DNA of 64,000 nucleotides from the NCBI GenBank assembly GCA_016783885.1, contig JADHVR010000001.1, forward strand, positions 54,284-118,283, given 5' to 3'. Every line of letters starts with the position of its first letter. The stretch's first letter is position 1. The position numbers were made by a program, and so were the translations under genes. Below the pieces are notes generated by a model that was not told the origin of the DNA, did no database searches, and saw only the letters and a list, made by a program, of their open reading frames with translations. Source of the DNA: Bacteroidales bacterium (lineage in GTDB: Bacteria > Bacteroidota > Bacteroidia > Bacteroidales > JAADJA01). Of the stretch, positions 2,682 through 64,000 are shown in pieces.

Positions 2682-3197
2682 TTAAATTTCAAAAGAATCA
2701 ATTAGTTTAATTGCATTTTTCACTCTAACTTCTCCTGTCCCGCTAATTATTGCATAAGGCAAATTTCTCTCATTAAGTTCATTCAGATATAGCTGAAACA
2801 GTTGTTCCCTGGTTTCAGAGTCTTCCCTTTGCGGATCATATTTCCACTGAATATCAGGTTTGCAAAGTAAATAAATATCGTAAGTATGTTGTTCAATAGT
2901 TTTTAATATCCAATCGTGGCACTTTTTAAACTTTACTTCGCACCATATTTTTGTAACTATTAATTCTGTATCACAAAAAAGCAGGTTGTTGGCTTTTCTT
3001 ACAAGTTGCTCCTCACGTTTTAATTGTTCCTTTGCGATTACCAAAATATCCTCATAATCATAAGGGCGAGTGCGATTATCAATATATTCCCTTGCATATT
3101 CAGGCACCCAAACAGTGTTGTAGTGCCGGGCAAGTCTTTCAGCCAATTCCGACTTTCCCGTGCTTTCCGGTCCTGTTATAGCTATTCGTTTGATCAC
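2682..3197 (-). CDS. NadR-type small P-loop kinase (nicotinamide riboside kinase-like ATPase)
   Basis: 171 aa. Walker A ITGPESTGKSELAERLA, then VWVPEYAREY as in the NadR C-terminal RNK domain. Lies downstream of pnuC. Confidence 0.65.
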   Translation of the reverse strand: MIKRIAITGPESTGKSELAERLARHYNTVWVPEYAREYIDNRTRPYDYEDILVIAKEQLKREEQLVRKANNLLFCDTELIVTKIWCEVKFKKCHDWILKTIEQHTYDIYLLCKPDIQWKYDPQREDSETREQLFQLYLNELNERNLPYAIISGTGEVRVKNAIKLIDSFEI

Positions 3198-3242: not shown

Positions 3243-3411
3243 TTGAATGGTTGAATGGTTAAATTGTCATTCGGTGGTCATTAAGTAGTCATTCAATAGT
3301 CAGTTCCCGCAATTGCTGGAAACGACAACTTAATAACAGCGAAGCTAAATGACAACAAATGACAGCAAAGCAAATGACCATCAATGACAGCAAAGCGTAA
3401 TGACCAATGAC
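3243..3411. repeat. Intergenic hexamer-array element: 2x TTGAATGG, then 3x GTCATT (11-nt phase), facing 6x AATGAC
   Basis: GTCATT at 3266, 3277 and 3288, plus GTCAG at 3299. AATGAC at 3348, 3358, 3373, 3383, 3399 and 3406 (spacings 10/15/10/16/7). A related element is at 63574-63758. Confidence 0.8.
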
Positions 3412-3443: not shown

Positions 3444-4076
3444 TTATACTTTTTCCCGAATCAGTTTCTTCCTCCATGAAATATATCCCATAACAGCAAG
3501 AATTAAAAAAATAATAAACTGGAAACTTGTAAACCCCAAACCCTTGTATGCATAAAGAGGAACTGAAATCACATTGCCGATAATCCATAAAATCCAGTTT
3601 TCTATTTTTTTCAATGCCATCAGCCACATGCCTACGATAAAAACGGCTGTTGTAAAAGTATCAATATATGGTACTTTGGTTGACCAGTATTCTGCGTCAT
3701 CCTGCTTAAATATTTTTAATAATATAATAATAACAATAAGCGATAAAATAAACATTCCAATTGCAATCAGCCAGTCTTTACGGGTGCAGGCAGTTATTCT
3801 AATCCTGGGCTGTGCTTTTTTCTTTGCCCATTTGTACCAGCCATATACACTCATGATAAAATAAAACAGGTTGATTCCTGCATCGGCATATAGCTTTATT
3901 CCAAAACAGATGTAAACATAAATAAGGACGCTTACTATTCCAGTAGGGTAAACCAGTATTTTCTCCTGCCTGGCAAACCAAACGCTCATCAAACCAAACA
4001 CAACTGCAATGAATTCAAGCCAGGTTGTATCAAGAATGTTATTCCTTATTGTTTCTATTATAGCTGCGGTATCCAT
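3444..4076 (-). CDS. pnuC: PnuC-family vitamin (nicotinamide riboside / possibly thiamine) transporter
   Basis: 210 aa, polytopic. N-terminus ...WLEFIAVVFGLMSVWFARQEKILVYPTGIVSV... and a W-rich C-terminal half are typical of PnuC. Confidence 0.8.
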   Translation of the reverse strand: MDTAAIIETIRNNILDTTWLEFIAVVFGLMSVWFARQEKILVYPTGIVSVLIYVYICFGIKLYADAGINLFYFIMSVYGWYKWAKKKAQPRIRITACTRKDWLIAIGMFILSLIVIIILLKIFKQDDAEYWSTKVPYIDTFTTAVFIVGMWLMALKKIENWILWIIGNVISVPLYAYKGLGFTSFQFIIFLILAVMGYISWRKKLIREKV

Positions 4077-4839: not shown

Positions 4840-7044
4840 TTAATCCAATTGCTTCCAAATCCCGTTAAGATAGCAGTAAATGTGATGGTCTGTTGAATTG
4901 ATATACAGGTCACCTTCTGATGGATCCGACGGAGCGCTGCTTCTCGGCTCAAGACGCATCACATCGCTTATGTGCAGGCTTCTTTGTGGATTTGTAGTGC
5001 CAATACCAACATTGCCATATTTAATTGTCACTGTACTATCAACTGCGCTATACAAAGTATCAGCATCAATTGTCCAGTCGTCATCTCCAGTAAAGCCAGA
5101 ATTAGAAATTACTTTAAGGGTACTGTCAGCAGGGTCCCATGTAACCAGGGAATCAGTTAGTGAGCCTAACACCATATCCTCTATTTTCAAAGCCCCTGCT
5201 ACATGGAGTTTTTCATCGGGATTTATTGTGCCGATACCAACATTGCCATATTTAATTGTCACTGTACTATCAACTGCGCTATACAAAGTATCAGCATCAA
5301 TTGTCCAGTCATCATCTCCAGTAAAGCCAGAATTAGAAATTATTTTAAGGGTACTGTCAGCAGGGTCCCATGTAACCAGGGAATCAGTTAGTGAGCCTAA
5401 CACCATATCCTCTATTTTCAAAGCCCCTGCTACATGGAGTTTTTCATCGGGATTTATTGTGCCGATACCAACATTACCTGCATTATCAATAGCGAATCGT
5501 GTTTCATTTCCTTGTCCGAATGAACGGTCGCGTATGTTAAAACTACCGGTCAGACCATCCAGGTAAAAATCCCACCAAAAATTACCTTCATCACCCTGGT
5601 TTGGCTGATTGCCCCAGATAAGCTCCACGCCCGGAGAAAATGCAGTAGCATCCGTAACCCGCCAGATACGCATTACCGCATCCGTACTGACAAGGTTTAA
5701 CGCACGATTGGCTTTTGTGCTGTTTACAGTATTTCCGAACGCACCTCTGCCGTAAACATGTAAAGGAGTGACTGGTGTTGTTGTGCCAATACCAACGTTG
5801 CCATATTTAATTGTTACTGTACTATCAGCTGCGCTATACAAAGTATCGTTATCAATCGTCCAGTCGTTATCACTGCTTAGACCGGTATAAGAAATTACTT
5901 TTAACTTACTGTCAGCCGGATCCCAGGTTACCAGCGAATCGGATGTGGAGCCTGCTACCATGTTCTCTATTTTTAATGCTCCGGCAACATGTAATTTTTC
6001 ATCCGGATTGGTTGTGCCGATACCAACATTTCCCGAAGTGTCAATGACCATGCGGGTTTCATTACCCTGTCCAAAAGAACGGTCGCGGATGTTAAAACTA
6101 CCGGTCAGTCCATCAAGGTAAAAATCCCACCAGAAATTACCTTCATCACCCTGATTTGGCTGATTGCCCCAGATAAGCTCCACGCCCGGAGAAAATGCAG
6201 TAGCATCCGTAACCCGCCAGATACGCATTACCGCATCCGTACTGACAAGGTTTAACGCACGATTGGCTTTTGTGCTGTTTATGGTATTTCCAAATGCACC
6301 TCTGCCGTTGACATGTAAAAGCGTGACCGGAGAGACAGTTCCGATCCCAACATTGCCGGGTACGGCAGCATACATATCATTTCCCGAGATGGTCCAGTCA
6401 GTATCGTTAATGGCCGAAGCGTGGATCTTTTTCAAAGTGCTGTCAGCAAAATCCCAGGTAACGAGTGAATCGGATAAGGAGCCGGTTGACAATTCTTCTA
6501 ATTTAAGATTACCGGCAACATGTAGCTTAGTATCGGGATTTATGATACCGATACCCACCTTTCCATCTTTAATTGTCACCGTACTATCAGCAGCGCTGTA
6601 TAAAGTATCAGAATCGGCTGTCCAGTCGCCGTCGTTACTGTATCCCGCATTTTCTGCATACAATGCATATGGTACGCTCAATACCTGTGTGGTTCCCATA
6701 GAGGTATAGGCACTTCCTCCATAAGGATCGAGTTCCACCTCCAGAAATTTGGAATTGTTTCCCCAATCAATATCTGCAAATATACCTGTTACCGGTGTCC
6801 CGTTACCAATTTCAAGATTTGCAATCCCGAACTGATTGGTTGTTGTGGCATGTGTCTCCTGGTAAAGGATGGTTCCGACAGCAGATCCGTCGCGTATACC
6901 GATTCGGAAACTAACGTTTTGATTCGATAAAATTTCGCCAGTTGCATCCCTTACTATCGCCTGGTATTTAAAAGCCTGTGGAGACTGGGCATTAGCGGAA
7001 ATAAATAAGAGAAATAAAACAACAAATAAAGCCAGTTTTTTCAT
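4840..7044 (-). CDS. Secreted tail-fibre-like repeat protein (NVGIGT-x-P-x-x-KLHV repeats), probable surface adhesin
   Basis: The signal peptide MKKLALFVVLFLLFISANAQ starts at the ATG at 7044. The ORF-track start at 7083 adds 13 aa. Contains multiple GNVGIGTxNPDEKLHVAG units. The C-terminus is GDLYINSTDHHIYCYLNGIWKQLD. Confidence 0.7.
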   Translation of the reverse strand: MKKLALFVVLFLLFISANAQSPQAFKYQAIVRDATGEILSNQNVSFRIGIRDGSAVGTILYQETHATTTNQFGIANLEIGNGTPVTGIFADIDWGNNSKFLEVELDPYGGSAYTSMGTTQVLSVPYALYAENAGYSNDGDWTADSDTLYSAADSTVTIKDGKVGIGIINPDTKLHVAGNLKLEELSTGSLSDSLVTWDFADSTLKKIHASAINDTDWTISGNDMYAAVPGNVGIGTVSPVTLLHVNGRGAFGNTINSTKANRALNLVSTDAVMRIWRVTDATAFSPGVELIWGNQPNQGDEGNFWWDFYLDGLTGSFNIRDRSFGQGNETRMVIDTSGNVGIGTTNPDEKLHVAGALKIENMVAGSTSDSLVTWDPADSKLKVISYTGLSSDNDWTIDNDTLYSAADSTVTIKYGNVGIGTTTPVTPLHVYGRGAFGNTVNSTKANRALNLVSTDAVMRIWRVTDATAFSPGVELIWGNQPNQGDEGNFWWDFYLDGLTGSFNIRDRSFGQGNETRFAIDNAGNVGIGTINPDEKLHVAGALKIEDMVLGSLTDSLVTWDPADSTLKIISNSGFTGDDDWTIDADTLYSAVDSTVTIKYGNVGIGTINPDEKLHVAGALKIEDMVLGSLTDSLVTWDPADSTLKVISNSGFTGDDDWTIDADTLYSAVDSTVTIKYGNVGIGTTNPQRSLHISDVMRLEPRSSAPSDPSEGDLYINSTDHHIYCYLNGIWKQLD
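5000..5461. repeat. Two tandem 231-bp (77-codon) copies inside the repeat-protein gene
   Basis: 5000-5230 versus 5231-5461 differ at only 3 positions by eye. A third, diverging copy starts at 5462. Confidence 0.9.
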
Positions 7045-7129
7045 ATTTCTTAATTTTTTAAAAATTGAATATTTACAGGGCATAAATTTACAAATTATTG
7101 TTGATATACAAAAAAGAATAGTAATATAT

Positions 7130-20066: not shown

Positions 20067-20113
20067 CTTGTTAAATTGTTGAATTATTGAATTAATGATT
20101 TATTGAATGATTA

Positions 20114-52015: not shown

Positions 52016-55000
52016 ATGAGGTTTATTAAATCCGAACATATTAAATCGCTTTTTTTTATAAATTTTTGCGCTTTTATTACCTTTTTGATTTTAAGTAATA
52101 ATTACGCCCTGGGTAATAATTTCTCAATTGAAAAAGACTTATCAGATGCTGAAAAATATTACATGACTGCACAAAAATACTTTTCAAACACAGAAGAATA
52201 TGATAGTGCAGTTGTAAATTATACACACGCAGCATCTTTGTTTCTTAAGCTTGAAGACTGGAAAGGTTTAATTATGTGTAATCTGAAATTAACAGAGTGC
52301 TTTAATATTAAAGGAGAATTTCAATTAGCTTTAGATAATGCCAACCGGGCGATGCAGATTGCCGATTTACATCTTTCACAAGATGAATTACTCTTTTCGG
52401 ATATTTATTATTTATTGGGAAAAACTGAATACGAATTGGGAAATTATAATGAATCCATCTCACGTTTAAAAAAGGGATTACAATATATTGATCATAGTAA
52501 AACCGAATATGACAGTATAAAAGTGCTTGTTTTTAAAACATTAGGAAATAATTATCTCAGGCTGGGGAAATTAAATATAGCATTAAAATCGTATAATGAC
52601 GCATTATACATTGAATTTGATAGAAATGGCGATTCTACTTTATCTGTTGCTGTTTTATATGCCAACATCGGAATTGTTTATTCAGCCAAAGGCTATTATT
52701 TTGAGGCTGAAAAATATATAAGAAACTCTATAAGAATTACGGAACAGTTGCTGCCTGTAACAGATCCAGAATTGGCAAGGGGTTATGTGAATTTAGGAAG
52801 GCTTCTGGTAATAATAGGGAATACTAATGATGCCCTGAACTATTTTAATAAGGCAGAAGAAATTTATATTGAAAAGTTTGGACCGGATTATTATAAACTG
52901 GCTTTAGTTTATTTTAATAAAGGAGGTATATTTATTCTGAAAAATGATTTTCAAAAAGCTTTAACTTATCACGAAAAAGCCTTAGAAATTTATTCGAAAT
53001 ATTTAAAGCCTTCAAATGCTGTATTTGGAAAATTATATGGCAACTTCGGGTTGATATATAAAAATTTAGGTGATTATAATAAAGCCATTGAATTTTATAA
53101 AATAGCTATTGATAAAATTTCGAATACAGAATCTGAAATTATCGGATTAAGAAATTTAGCCACTTGTTATCAGGCTATAAATGACTATGATAAAGCCGGG
53201 TTTTATTATAGGCTTTCAATTGAGAAAGCCATTGAACTCTTTGGGAATAATCACACTCAACTTGCAGATTGTTATTTATATTTTGGTGAATTTTATAATG
53301 AGATAAATGATTTTGATAAAGCAGGAGAATTATTCAATAAAGCATATTTTATATATAAAAATAATTTTGGAGAGAAAAACAGGGATGTAGCAAACGTATT
53401 AACTTATATTGGCGATCTTTTTTTAACACTTCAGGATTATAATAATGCTTTGAATTATTATCAATCGTCATTATTATCCATTGTTAATAACTTTAACGAT
53501 AGCATTATTTATAATAATCCGGTTTTATCGCAACTCACCCAGGATGTAAATACAATTGATTGCCTTGATAAAAAGGCAAAAACATTTTATTTTTTATATT
53601 TAAAAAAAACTAATAATATAAATGATCTGATCGCCTGTCTTGAATCGGGCGAACTTGCCATTCAGTTATTTGAGATTATTAGAGTTTCATATACCGGTGA
53701 GAGTATTAAATTACTGGCAACTCAAAAAATAAACAATCTTTACAAGATATTAATATTAGCATCAGTTGAATTATATAAAAGAACCGGAGATACTCAGTAT
53801 TTGAAATCAGCATTTGAATACTCTGAGAAAAACAAAGCGGCTGTTCTCCTGTCATCAATAAAAGAATTAGAGGCAATGGATTTTAGTAATGTTCCTGTTG
53901 ATATTATGGATTTTGAACGATCCCTGAAAAATGATCTTGCAAATTACAGGAATTTAATTTTTGAGGAAGAACTAAAAAAAGAACCTGATGAAGATAAACT
54001 TATTAAATGGAAAAATGATTATTTTGAAATAACAAAAAAATATGATAGCCTGATATCGAATATAGAAAATAACTATCCTGAATATTATCAATTAAAGTAT
54101 GATAATAGTGTAATGGATATTGATAAAATCCAGGCGGGTTTAAGTGATGAGGATGTGTTTATCGAGTATGCACTTGTTGATTCTGTTTTAGTAATTTTTT
54201 GTATCTCATCCGACACATTAATTTATAACCTTGTGAACCTGAAGAATAATTTTAAAGAAAATGTGCTTAGTTATATCGAAATAACACATAATTTACCCGA
54301 AATAGAAAATAGTAAAGAAGGATTTATTAAATTTACAAATCTTGCCCATGAATTATTTCAATTTTTACTTGAACCAATTAGTGATTGCATATCAGAAAAA
54401 AAATTATTGATTATTCCTGATGATATTCTTGGTTACATCTCTTTTGAAAGTTTAATTAATAGAATGCCTGATACCGGTAAAGTCAATTATAAAAACCTTT
54501 CCTATATAATCAAGAACCATTCGGTTTCATATAGTTATTCAGCTACACTTTTATTTAAAGAATTAACAAAAAGAAAAAATACCGGGAAATTATTAGCTAT
54601 GGCTCCCCTTTATAATAATATAAATGATACATATAATATTGGTTATATAAACAGAATGGAGTACGAACAGCTTATAACCCCATTGGATTATAATGTTGAT
54701 GAGGTAACACAAATTCATGAAATAATGGGGGGTAAAAGCCTTACCGGCAAAGAAGCTTCTGAGAAATATTTCAAACTAAATGCTCAAAAATATAATATTC
54801 TTCATTTGGCAATGCATGCATTTATAAATGATGATGAGCCATTAGCCTCAAAATTAGTTTTTACATTTGATACTGATTCAATTGAAGATGGTTTTTTAAA
54901 CACGTATGAGATTTATAATCTGGACTTGAATGCACAATTGGCTGTATTAAGTGCTTGTAAAACCGGAGCGGGTAAATTAAGCAAGGGTGAGGGTATTATG

Positions 55001-63100: not shown

Positions 63101-63571
63101 ATGACTAACCTGACTTATACTTATGAATGTAAAGCCGATTCAAAAGGCAGAGTGATGCTTCCGGCAGGATTAAAAAAGGAACTACTGCCTGTTTTGAATG
63201 ATGGGTTTGTTATTAAAAAAAGTGTTTTTTACCGTTGCCTTGAACTGTATCCGAATGCTGAATGGGTAGAGGAAATGGCAGGTATTGATAAACTGAACAG
63301 GTTTGTAAAGAAAAATATTGATTTCATCAGGAGATTCATGGCAGGAGTAAAACCGGTTGTTCTTGACGGCAATGGAAGACTGCTTATCCCGAAAGACTTG
63401 ATGGGATATGCTAAAATTGAAAAAAATATCGTGCTGACATCACAAATAAACAAAATAGAAATTTGGGACAAAGACAGCTATGAAAAAGTTATTGGTGATA
63501 AAGAAATAGATTTCGGAACCCTTGCTGAAGATGTTATGGGAGGGAAAGATAATGCAGAACATAGCCATTAA
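63101..63571 (+). CDS. mraZ: Transcriptional regulator MraZ
   Basis: The ATG at 63101 (MTNLTYTYECKADSKGRVMLPAGLKKEL) is preferred, since the tracked GTG at 63047 lies inside the operator boxes. Two SpoVT-AbrB-like halves (DSKGRVMLP and DGNGRLLIP). Confidence 0.9.
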   Translation: MTNLTYTYECKADSKGRVMLPAGLKKELLPVLNDGFVIKKSVFYRCLELYPNAEWVEEMAGIDKLNRFVKKNIDFIRRFMAGVKPVVLDGNGRLLIPKDLMGYAKIEKNIVLTSQINKIEIWDKDSYEKVIGDKEIDFGTLAEDVMGGKDNAEHSH

Positions 63572-63573
63572 TA

Positions 63574-63758
63574 GTCATTCAGTAGTCATTCGATGGTCAT
63601 TGGTTCAATGGTTGTTTTTAAATTGTTTGTAGTTATTGATCAAATAAAGTGCAAATCGCTAACTAAGATTGACACGAATTAAATAAAAGCAGACCATGAA
63701 TGACAGCGAAGCAAATGACAACAAATGACGCGAAGCAAATGACAACGAAGCAAATGAC
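63574..63758. repeat. Second GTCATT/AATGAC hexamer-array element, in the mraZ-rsmH spacer
   Basis: GTCATT at 63574, 63585 and 63596 (11-nt phase), then TCAATGGTTG. AATGAC at 63699, 63714, 63724, 63738 and 63753 (spacings 15/10/14/15). Confidence 0.8.
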
Positions 63759-63765
63759 TTAAAAA

Positions 63766-64000
63766 ATGTACCACGAGCCGGTTTTATTAACAGAAAGCAT
63801 TGAAGGATTAAATATAAAAGAAGGCGGTATATATGTAGATGCAACTTATGGCGGAGGTGGACATTCACTTGAAATCTTAAAAAACATCGGAAAAGGTTCT
63901 TTGATAGCATTCGACCAGGATGATGATGCCCTGAAAAACAAAGCAGACGATGACAGGCTGATTCTAATCAATCAGAATTTCAGGTATATGCGGAATTTCC
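63766..64000 (+). CDS. rsmH: 16S rRNA (cytosine1402-N4)-methyltransferase RsmH, N-terminal part (runs off the window end)
   Basis: Absent from the ORF track because there is no stop. Reads [56 protein letters not shown]... and follows mraZ. Confidence 0.85.

Follow-up and report, generated by a model that had tools for sequence, protein, structure and literature searches.

Probable gene-less members of a multi-phylum family of modular intergenic elements in two operon spacers of a Bacteroidales genome

Contig JADHVR010000001.1 of a Bacteroidales bacterium (GenBank assembly GCA_016783885.1) carries, within a stretch of 64,000 nucleotides (positions 54,284 to 118,283 of the forward strand, hereafter the window), two short elements that are built from arrays of the hexamers GTCATT and AATGAC. 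Element 1 is located in the spacer between pnuC and the gene for a NadR-like kinase, and element 2 in the spacer between mraZ and rsmH. With a probability of roughly 0.65, both are gene-less members, either miniatures or relics, of a modular intergenic element family which spans several phyla and represents a selfish cassette reminiscent of rRNA intervening sequences (IVSs) and of REPtrons, the units formed by repetitive extragenic palindromic (REP) sequences and their cognate gene. The full form of this family consists of a (GTCATT-N4-5)n array (the G arm), a gene for a four-helix-bundle protein of about 120 amino acids and an (AATGAC-spacer)n array (the A arm), and lies in sense orientation between co-directional genes; the A-arm spacer is either 1-5 nt long or a mini-hairpin closed by C-GNA-G. 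It is highly probable that the window spacers belong to a dispersed family and were inserted, rather than being specific to their loci, and probable that they are the gene-less form of the four-helix-bundle cassette.

Two facing hexamer arrays and their dispersed relatives

Both elements follow the same grammar, in which GTCATT units at an 11-nt phase are followed by a core and by a series of AATGAC units (Table 1). In element 1, which is embedded in a spacer of 246 nt, the phase of the three GTCATT units is exact, while the six AATGAC units are spaced by 10, 15, 10, 16 and 7 nt and separated either by short spacers (AACA, CATC, C) or by mini-hairpins (AGCAAAGCA, AGCAAAGCGT). The G arm of element 2 begins inside the final codons of mraZ, whose TAA stop occupies 63569-63571, and its A arm stops 7 nt short of the rsmH start codon. 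A unit akin to the left edge of element 1, TTCAATGGTTG, is present within element 2 at 63604-63614. Both elements have the same plus-strand orientation, and their host operons lie on opposite strands. Within the window, GTCATT-N5-GTCATT with at most one mismatch occurs 5 times against 0.42 expected and the hairpin unit GCRAAGCAAATGAC with at most two mismatches 5 times against 0.91 expected, a number that is reached by none of 100 shuffles in either case. In a relaxed scan for at least five near-anchors per 60 nt, elements 1 and 2 are the only places detected in the 64 kb.

The initial annotation of this DNA had described a phased GTCATT array facing an AATGAC array in the pnuC-kinase spacer and a second element of the same grammar in the mraZ-rsmH spacer. 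Each of its sequence statements proves accurate and the arrays, located at 3243-3411 and 63561-63758, are far above chance. The '~45-nt unique core' that it assigned to element 1 stands only in part, as this stretch partly consists of decayed A-arm units and a 21-nt palindrome at 3303-3323 forms the actual centre. It had further suggested that the arms, which are reverse complements, are able to pair, in agreement with duplex energies of -30.6 kcal/mol for element 1 (z = -3.5) and -25.6 kcal/mol for element 2 (z = -2.1), and that the elements lie between co-directional, presumably co-transcribed genes, which is borne out for both.

The sequence of element 1 is identical across three independent assemblies of the same organism and is therefore not an assembly artefact. 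In four independent assemblies the contigs stop within element 1, 106-187 nt past the pnuC stop (Table 1). Arrays of this kind fragment short-read metagenome assemblies, and contig breaks in element 1 represent the usual behaviour of assemblers at repeats.

Table 1. Features of the two elements, their host genes and related loci. Coordinates are those of the window unless a locus (L number) is given; anchor positions are those of the first nucleotide.
Feature	Coordinates	Strand	Remarks
AAA_28 (NadR-like) kinase	2682..3197	-	GTG start at 3195-3197; downstream gene in host operon of element 1
Element 1, outer left edge, TTGAATGG x2	3243..3258		
Element 1, G arm, GTCATT x3 + degenerate GTCAGT	3266..3304		11-nt phase; GTCATT at 3266, 3277, 3288; GTCAGT at 3299
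Element 1, central palindrome GTTCCCGCAATTGCTGGAAAC	3303..3323		21 nt; tip of predicted hairpin
Element 1, A arm, degenerate AACGAC + AATAAC, then AATGAC x6	3321..3411		AACGAC at 3321, AATAAC at 3332; AATGAC at 3348, 3358, 3373, 3383, 3399, 3406
pnuC (PF04973)	3444..4076	-	upstream gene in host operon of element 1
mraZ	63101..63571	+	listed open reading frame from 63047 over-extended; homologues share Met start at 63101
Element 2, G arm, GCCATT + GTCATT x3	63564..63601		11-nt phase; GCCATT at 63564; GTCATT at 63574, 63585, 63596
Element 2, core	63602..63698		97 nt; decayed units by eye: GTTGTT, GTTATT, ATTGAC
Element 2, A arm, AATGAC x5	63699..63758		AATGAC at 63699, 63714, 63724, 63738, 63753; spacers AGCGAAGCA, AACA, GCGAAGCA, AACGAAGCA
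rsmH, 5' part	63766..64000	+	ATG at 63766; continues beyond window end
Contig ends within element 1	L003 3820; L004 1695; L005 1090; L180 2739		
AACCAGC flanks of a four-helix-bundle gene	L268 5380-6000		

The 21-mer AATGACARCRAAGCAAATGAC was scanned against one genome per species, in total 185,579 species and 596 Gb, for which about one chance match is estimated. More than 118 stretches are matched, which reveals a repeat family with a grammar of its own rather than chance junk, as had been suspected from the window, and one that extends well beyond the two copies first seen. When the arms were compared with genome, metagenome and assembly loci at E < 1e-3, element 1 matches 104 loci and element 2 133 loci; in blastn-short searches the G arm of element 1 matches G arms at many loci, some of which lie upstream of four-helix-bundle genes. 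The core of element 2 has no match among the other loci searched. Among the matches listed, 104 of 118 loci contain at least one array of at least three anchors, with 185 arrays overall. Clear arrays are found, again among the matches listed, in Bacteroidales, Mucilaginibacter isolates, Saprospiraceae, Lentimicrobiaceae, Prolixibacteraceae and Rikenellaceae, and also in Ignavibacteria, Calditrichaceae, Nitrospinia, Rhodothermales, Balneolales and one 'Deltaproteobacteria' metagenome-assembled genome (MAG). Two MAGs, one of Methanomicrobiales (L085) and one of Lachnospiraceae (L168), have isolated two-anchor matches without an array and are not counted as members.

Where both arm types are present, their order is G array, short core, A array, on either strand. 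The distances from anchor to anchor across the family are 7-8, 10-11, 14-16 and 18 nt, corresponding to spacer length classes of 1-2, 4-5, 8-10 and 12 nt; spacers of 4-5 nt (AACA, TATTG, CATTG and others) yield 10-11-nt units as in the window, and arrays reach 27 units. Variants of the grammar also occur. On the minus strand of L108 the variant anchor AATTAC goes together with unchanged GCGAAGC and AACA spacers, which means that the anchor differs in some lineages, and in Lentimicrobiaceae and Saprospiraceae MAGs (L116 ~640-780, L119 ~770-840, L129, L083) tandem arrays of the CAGTTGGCAGTCTTCAGTTCA and GGTCAGAAAGTC types adjoin AATGAC arrays. The CAGTTGGCAGTCTTCAGTTCA-type array resembles the REP of Belliella that is assigned to subclass 2.6 of the REP-associated tyrosine transposases (RAYTs) (PMC6006769 supplement).

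The family is intergenic in habit: of about 100 arrays among the matches listed, not one falls within a long open reading frame (ORF). The array-bearing spacers are co-directional in 63 cases, convergent in 12 and divergent in 6 (among the matches listed). Many arrays occupy the entire gap from stop codon to start codon. Arrays with a single arm place AAUGAC in the sense transcript in 34 cases against 11, often immediately 5' of a start codon.

The long spacers are mini-hairpins closed by C-GNA-G, the stems of which covary. Across 209 long spacers that were not dictated by the search pattern the loops are GAA (79), GCA (37), AAA (23) and GTA (18), and the stems vary yet stay complementary (GC, GCC, GCCC, GGC, AGCC, GCGC, GTGC, ACCTGC); shuffled spacers pair far less than the real ones. 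The C-GNA-G triloop is characteristic of d(GCGAAGC), a DNA hairpin of unusual stability. GNA triloops also cap REPs of Pseudomonas (PMC6006769 supplement). Units with 4-5-nt spacers and whole G arms form no hairpin. Among 45 full elements, pairing is stronger between cognate arms than between non-cognate ones (mean -47.6 against -40.6 kcal/mol, Mann-Whitney p = 3e-5), the strongest cognate pair reaching -127 kcal/mol.

The absence of a described repeat class, which had been noted at the outset, persists in the databases and literature consulted. At the gathering threshold Rfam reports only tRNA genes in the whole window, and at an E-value threshold only noise in element 1. The element is missing from the REP tables in the supplement of one RAYT/REP survey (PMC6006769), where neither AATGAC nor GTCATT appears under RAYT subclass 2.6, and literature searches on the hexamers, on PF05635, TIGR02436 and S23p, on short tandemly repeated repetitive sequences (STRRs) and on Bacteroidetes REPs and RAYTs found no description of the array family. 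Several other assignments were considered and rejected. A riboswitch or leader for pnuC/nadR and an operator for MraZ are discarded because orthologous junctions do without the element. A coding repeat or small ORF is incompatible with units of 7, 10, 11, 15 and 16 nt, which are not multiples of three, and the ORFs called across the arrays are artefacts. CRISPR arrays, attC sites and iterons or origins are rejected on anatomy and copy distribution, CRISPR having direct repeats of 24-48 nt with unique spacers of similar length whereas the arrays have 6-nt anchors, repeated spacers of 1-12 nt and inverted arms. As a search pattern, (GTCATT-N5)x3 is too unspecific, returning 56 mostly single, unrelated matches in viral contigs.

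The four-helix-bundle gene between the arrays

An ORF of about 120 codons whose product ends in ...KLNNYIKSIG recurs between the arrays of the loci that were selected by pattern. The protein belongs to PF05635 (23S_rRNA_IVP, E = 1e-26) and to TIGR02436 ('four helix bundle protein'), and its closest solved structure is XCC0516 (PDB 2GSC). PF05635 resembles Avd and is a pentamer in PDB 2GSC (PMC10053308). Remnants of the gene are located inside two array pairs, at L075 5648-6093 and L120 2491-2753. For an unbiased test of the association, 80 metagenome loci were chosen by protein alignment of the four-helix-bundle gene alone. At least three GTCATT hexamers lie within 200 nt upstream of the gene in 51 of 77 of these loci, and at least three AATGAC hexamers within 250 nt downstream in 60 of 73. 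The orientation of the arrays relative to the gene is constant, with GTCATT upstream and AATGAC downstream, and the anchor density of about 21 per kb beside the gene compares with about 0.35 per kb further away. In approximately 70-80% of the protein-selected loci, the gene enclosed by the inverted arrays is PF05635. It shares the direction of both neighbours in 44 of 51 loci; the neighbours are ordinary, unrelated operon genes, at median distances of 129 nt (upstream) and 115.5 nt (downstream). Of 80 copies, 78 are intact, with a ratio of nonsynonymous to synonymous substitutions (dN/dS) of 0.125, and the protein is therefore under purifying selection. Saturation of synonymous sites is seen in 2299 of 3003 pairs and the flanking anchors are still the same hexamer, so that the anchors are more constrained than the silent sites of the gene. 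The subfamily comprises at least 4977 clusters at 90% identity.

Other PF05635 subfamilies are accompanied by repeats of their own, a generalisation which rests on 13 loci, all 13 of which have different short arrays, of tandem or unit repeats, at their flanks. One four-helix-bundle gene of a Roseimarinus sediminis isolate, flanked by GTCATT and AATGAC arrays, belongs to a polysaccharide operon, and a second, divergent copy has about 20 AACCAGC heptamers on one side and further ones on the other (Table 1). A copy from Rikenellaceae (L172, flanks at 6900-7110) is preceded by six GGTGCTC/GGTACTC units, and a divergent one from Calditrichaceae (L079) is flanked by irregular TCAGC-type units and not by AATGAC. 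When a divergent protein was compared with plasmids by tblastn, 26 records were found, nearly all of them from Nostocales. In all ten cyanobacterial plasmid loci (L269-L274, L276-L279) the gene is flanked by short tandem arrays, mostly of heptamers, that are often inverted (GGGTGTR/CCTACAC, AAAAGGG/CCCTTTT, AGGGAAC/GTTCCCT); other flanks consist of 16 copies of AAAAGCT or of about 40 GGTGACA/GGGAACA units. The background is 9 arrays of at least four copies in 60 kb around two of the cyanobacterial genes. These genes usually lie between co-directional genes, and their arrays look like classical STRRs. The interval between cas6 and cas4 of a CRISPR-cas operon holds the gene together with heptamer arrays on plasmids of Pseudanabaena galeata (L274) and Anabaena sp. 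90 (L276). On plasmid AZO_p2 of Azospirillum lipoferum 4B (L275, 13692-15445) an unannotated four-helix-bundle ORF is located within a 23S rRNA gene, with CAGAGGA/CGGAGGA-type units and the reverse complement of these as its flanks, in the same architecture as the cassettes of operon spacers; this insert is a true 23S rRNA intervening sequence.

No paper linking STRRs to the PF05635 family was found in the literature searched, and the link is a new observation on a small sample that is not established. It is conceivable, if doubtful, that PF05635/TIGR02436 proteins in general are dedicated partners of short repeat arrays, with each subfamily co-evolving with its own unit of 6-7 nt.

Insertion and turnover of the window copies

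The two window copies entered tight operon junctions in a recent ancestor. They have changed fast since then, with units being gained, lost and degraded over the time in which species diverge. In relatives whose PnuC is 80% identical, the pnuC-kinase spacer has no arrays and measures 52 nt (L181) or 41 nt (L182, L183). The element is present in this spacer in L180 (PnuC 93% identical), with a different series of units. The mraZ and rsmH genes overlap as TAATG in L266 and L267 (80-83% identical), overlap as well in L280, and are separated by 5 nt in L281 and L282; in L265 the gap is 73 nt, without arrays. In L160, which shares about 91% nucleotide identity over 1.1 kb, the element occupies the same mraZ-rsmH site and is remodelled, with six GTCATT units, an 8-nt core and eight 15-nt hairpin units compared with three GTCATT units, a 97-nt core and five mixed units in the window. 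Element 2 has thus destroyed the TAATG stop/start overlap of mraZ and rsmH, and the broken junctions were probably translationally coupled before the insertions took place.

Further observations concern the same junctions and the remainder of the window. The kinase gene starts with GTG in the window and with ATG in L181. The pnuC-kinase spacer of L184 (PnuC 78% identical) contains at 2640-2780 a palindrome, gccccatccctaaaggg...ccctttagggttagggc, that is unrelated, so that another repeat must have entered this junction in an independent event. A strongly decayed candidate for a third array, TTGAATTATTGAAT...ATTGAATGA, is located at 20067-20113 between two minus-strand genes and is composed of TTGAAT(T/G)A-type units; it is weak and falls under the threshold of the relaxed anchor scan. 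Its spacer has GTTAAATTGT in common with the left edge of element 1. Positions 4988-5475, inside a long minus-strand ORF (4840-7083), contain 2.1 copies of a 231-nt unit at 98% identity, which corresponds to 77 codons in frame and is therefore a recent duplication.

Proposed mechanism, alternatives and wider significance

It is tentatively proposed that expression of the cassette relies on transcription reading through from the host operon. In the transcript, the inverted arms of the cassette may then pair and form a stem like that of an IVS, which could be cut by RNase III by analogy with the IVS of Coxiella, the one case with experimental proof. The hexamer anchors would possibly be read in single-stranded form by a factor acting in trans, for which the oligomeric four-helix-bundle protein would be the likeliest candidate if the relationship resembles that between REP sequences and the RAYT gene, and the hairpin spacers would serve as compact linkers. 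The window elements themselves are probably near-neutral passengers, whose side effects probably comprise the loss of translational coupling between mraZ and rsmH and the addition of an imperfect stem to each operon transcript.

Several points weigh against a cassette of this kind. The four-helix-bundle gene is not found within the 64-kb window, and no recognisable remnant of it is present in the cores of the two elements or elsewhere in the window, so that decay of a cassette in situ and transposition of a gene-less form are indistinguishable. Arrays are mostly single-armed (44 A-only, 26 G-only and 33 paired among the matches listed), and a stem with RNase III cleavage is therefore inapplicable to the single-armed ones. 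The folds of the whole elements as RNA are only weakly better than those of shuffles (z = -2.2 and -0.7). Transposases, reverse transcriptases and nucleases are not among the recurrent neighbours of the arrays in stretches of up to 8 kb. In a comparison aimed at target-site duplications, the longest word shared between the two flanks averages 3.69 nt against 3.58 +/- 0.08 nt for permuted pairs in 99 elements, whose ends are fuzzy owing to unit decay. The genome loci were picked by a pattern that requires the hairpin unit, the protein-selected loci are the closest 80 of 541 relatives, the gene calls are simple, crude ORF calls and many of the sources are MAGs.

The initial annotation had pointed to a device for the host operons acting in processing, stability or translation coupling, or else to phased half-sites on duplex DNA. 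In the former case the elements would be locally selected cis-acting RNAs whose alternative hairpins set the processing, stability and translation of both host transcripts. This would suit the position of both copies between co-directional genes, the pairing of the arms beyond that of shuffles, the avoidance of divergent spacers and the excess of sense AAUGAC, often just 5' of a start codon. However, the same junctions are without the element, and tightly coupled, in relatives with about 80% identical proteins, the copies are heavily remodelled in relatives at ~91-93% identity, and the same units recur in more than 100 functionally unrelated operons of several phyla. The modest whole-element folds given above, the lack of any Rfam match and a scan of the element 1 spacer for terminators and sigma-70 promoters, in which nothing exceeded shuffles and no terminator-like site was seen (Bacteroidota promoters lay outside that scan), likewise argue against it. 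Recent arrival followed by fast remodelling fits poorly with selection of a device for these operons, and the explanation is considered quite improbable. Half-sites in phase, bound by a regulator or nucleoid protein of the host, would account for the exact 11-nt period of the G arms in the window, which is about one helical turn, but the distances of 7-8, 10-11, 14-16 and 18 nt across the family are not multiples of the helical repeat and place the anchors on different faces of the helix, divergent spacers, where promoters lie, are avoided, and the sites are not conserved at orthologous loci. This possibility is the most remote of those weighed here.

Two further explanations dispense with the four-helix-bundle protein as a partner. 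The arrays may be a family of the type of REPs and bacterial interspersed mosaic elements (BIMEs) that is spread in trans by a RAYT (Y1/HUH) acting on single-stranded DNA, the four-helix-bundle gene being no more than a frequent passenger. The units are indeed REP-like, with a short GC hairpin beside a conserved tag and GNA triloops as in Pseudomonas, they share the REP habit of clustering in extragenic, transcribed spacers, and Bacteroidetes possess RAYT subclass 2.6 with 'atypical' REPs. Yet the units have no GT[AG]G or CGTC tag, many of them (those with 4-5-nt spacers and whole G arms) lack a hairpin, the catalogued REPs of subclass 2.6 are different and include neither hexamer, no Y1 transposase is among the recurrent neighbours in stretches of up to 8 kb, and the gene between the inverted arrays is PF05635 in most protein-selected loci, so that a RAYT-driven origin is slightly less credible again than a cis-acting RNA. 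Alternatively, the arrays could be passive mini- or microsatellites that change by slippage and recombination only, their likeness across taxa reflecting descent or horizontal transfer together with the adjacent gene. Such a history would be in line with the fast shifts of unit number and order between close relatives, with arrays of up to 27 units, and with target-site duplications going undetected at the fuzzy ends and mobilising enzymes being missing among the recurrent neighbours. It is at odds with the constancy of the hexamer and the GCGAAGC unit across phyla despite saturated synonymous sites in the adjacent gene, with hairpin spacers that keep their pairing through compensatory changes, and with the occurrence of a separate repeat unit for each four-helix-bundle subfamily; moreover, slippage alone cannot make new insertions at formerly tight junctions. 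Only a small probability, below that of a RAYT-driven family, is attached to it.

The preferred selfish cassette is in its action most similar to the REP/BIME-RAYT systems and to rRNA IVSs, yet it lacks defining features of both. In Coxiella the 23S IVS carries a PF05635-type ORF, is regarded as selfish and is excised by RNase III (PMC4990558). The rRNA IVSs of Coxiella and Leptospira (with the PF05635 'S23p' ORF) resemble the full cassette in placing the same protein family between inverted flanks in a transcribed region, and the flanks of the Azospirillum IVS are made of repeated units and their inverse as in the array cassettes. IVSs are located in helix 25 or 45 of 23S rRNA, whereas the window copies lie in mRNA operon spacers, and the arms of the array family are modular, one fixed hexamer recurring between spacers that vary. 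The IVS carries an ORF, whereas the window copies have neither ORF nor remnant and only their full-length relatives carry one; in the array family gene-less and single-arm copies far outnumber those with a gene. The ORF of the Coxiella IVS is decaying, in contrast to the array-family protein, which is under purifying selection. REP/BIME clusters and REPIN-RAYT REPtrons share with the arrays short structured extragenic repeats in variable modular clusters, a location in transcribed spacers that are co-directional or convergent, a cognate gene that has inverted copies of the genome-dispersed repeats on either side, and GNA-capped hairpins. They differ in that a REP is a palindrome of 20-40 nt with a GT[AG]G/CGTC tag whereas the array unit is an untagged 6-nt anchor with an optional hairpin of 7-13 nt, that the REPtron gene encodes a Y1 transposase whereas the array-bracketed gene encodes a four-helix bundle without a known catalytic motif, and that REP families are usually lineage-specific whereas the array unit is common to several phyla.

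The window copies are also reminiscent of miniature inverted-repeat transposable elements (MITEs), being variably present, non-coding, inverted-repeat-bounded derivatives of about 170-200 bp of a gene-bearing element. Terminal inverted repeats as in MITEs are matched by the G and A arms, which are reverse complements at the level of the unit and pair. The parent of a MITE encodes a transposase, that of the arrays the four-helix-bundle protein, with deletion derivatives in L075 and L120, and MITE copies are near-identical whereas array copies are modular and heterogeneous. The Avd protein of diversity-generating retroelements (DGRs) is a homologous small four-helix bundle of PF05635 and acts through nucleic-acid binding in concert with a partner enzyme (PMC10053308). 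Unlike in DGRs, no reverse transcriptase or pair of template and variable repeats (TR/VR) was seen beside the four-helix-bundle genes, where no dedicated reverse-transcriptase profile search was made. Cyanobacterial STRRs are, like the arrays, intergenic tandems of 6-7-nt units, and arrays of this look flank a four-helix-bundle gene in ten of ten plasmid loci. STRRs are plain heptamer tandems of other sequence from heterocystous cyanobacteria, a different phylum, whereas the window arrays of Bacteroidales combine hexamer anchors with variable spacers, and the likeness is one of habit only.

If PF05635 proteins are indeed dedicated partners of short repeat arrays, this would constitute a protein-repeat association like that of RAYT and REP but without a recognisable nuclease, in which the PF05635 protein would bind single-stranded repeat units. 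AATGAC arrays would then belong to the subfamily of Bacteroidota and neighbouring phyla, AACCAGC and GGTGCTC arrays to other subfamilies of Bacteroidota, and arrays of the GGGTGTA, AGGGAAC and AAAAGCT types to cyanobacteria, and STRRs, rRNA intervening sequences and the window arrays would all derive, as products or relics, from a single type of cassette that rides on operons. The arrays provide a testable partner for TIGR02436, a large family of 'function unknown', with cultured hosts available in Mucilaginibacter species and Roseimarinus sediminis, and they tie together puzzles so far handled apart from one another: rRNA intervening sequences, the dispersed arrays of Bacteroidota and neighbouring phyla and possibly the STRRs of cyanobacteria. 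Since they split coupled junctions such as mraZ/rsmH and vary among close relatives, the arrays represent a source of variation in gene expression and a marker for typing.

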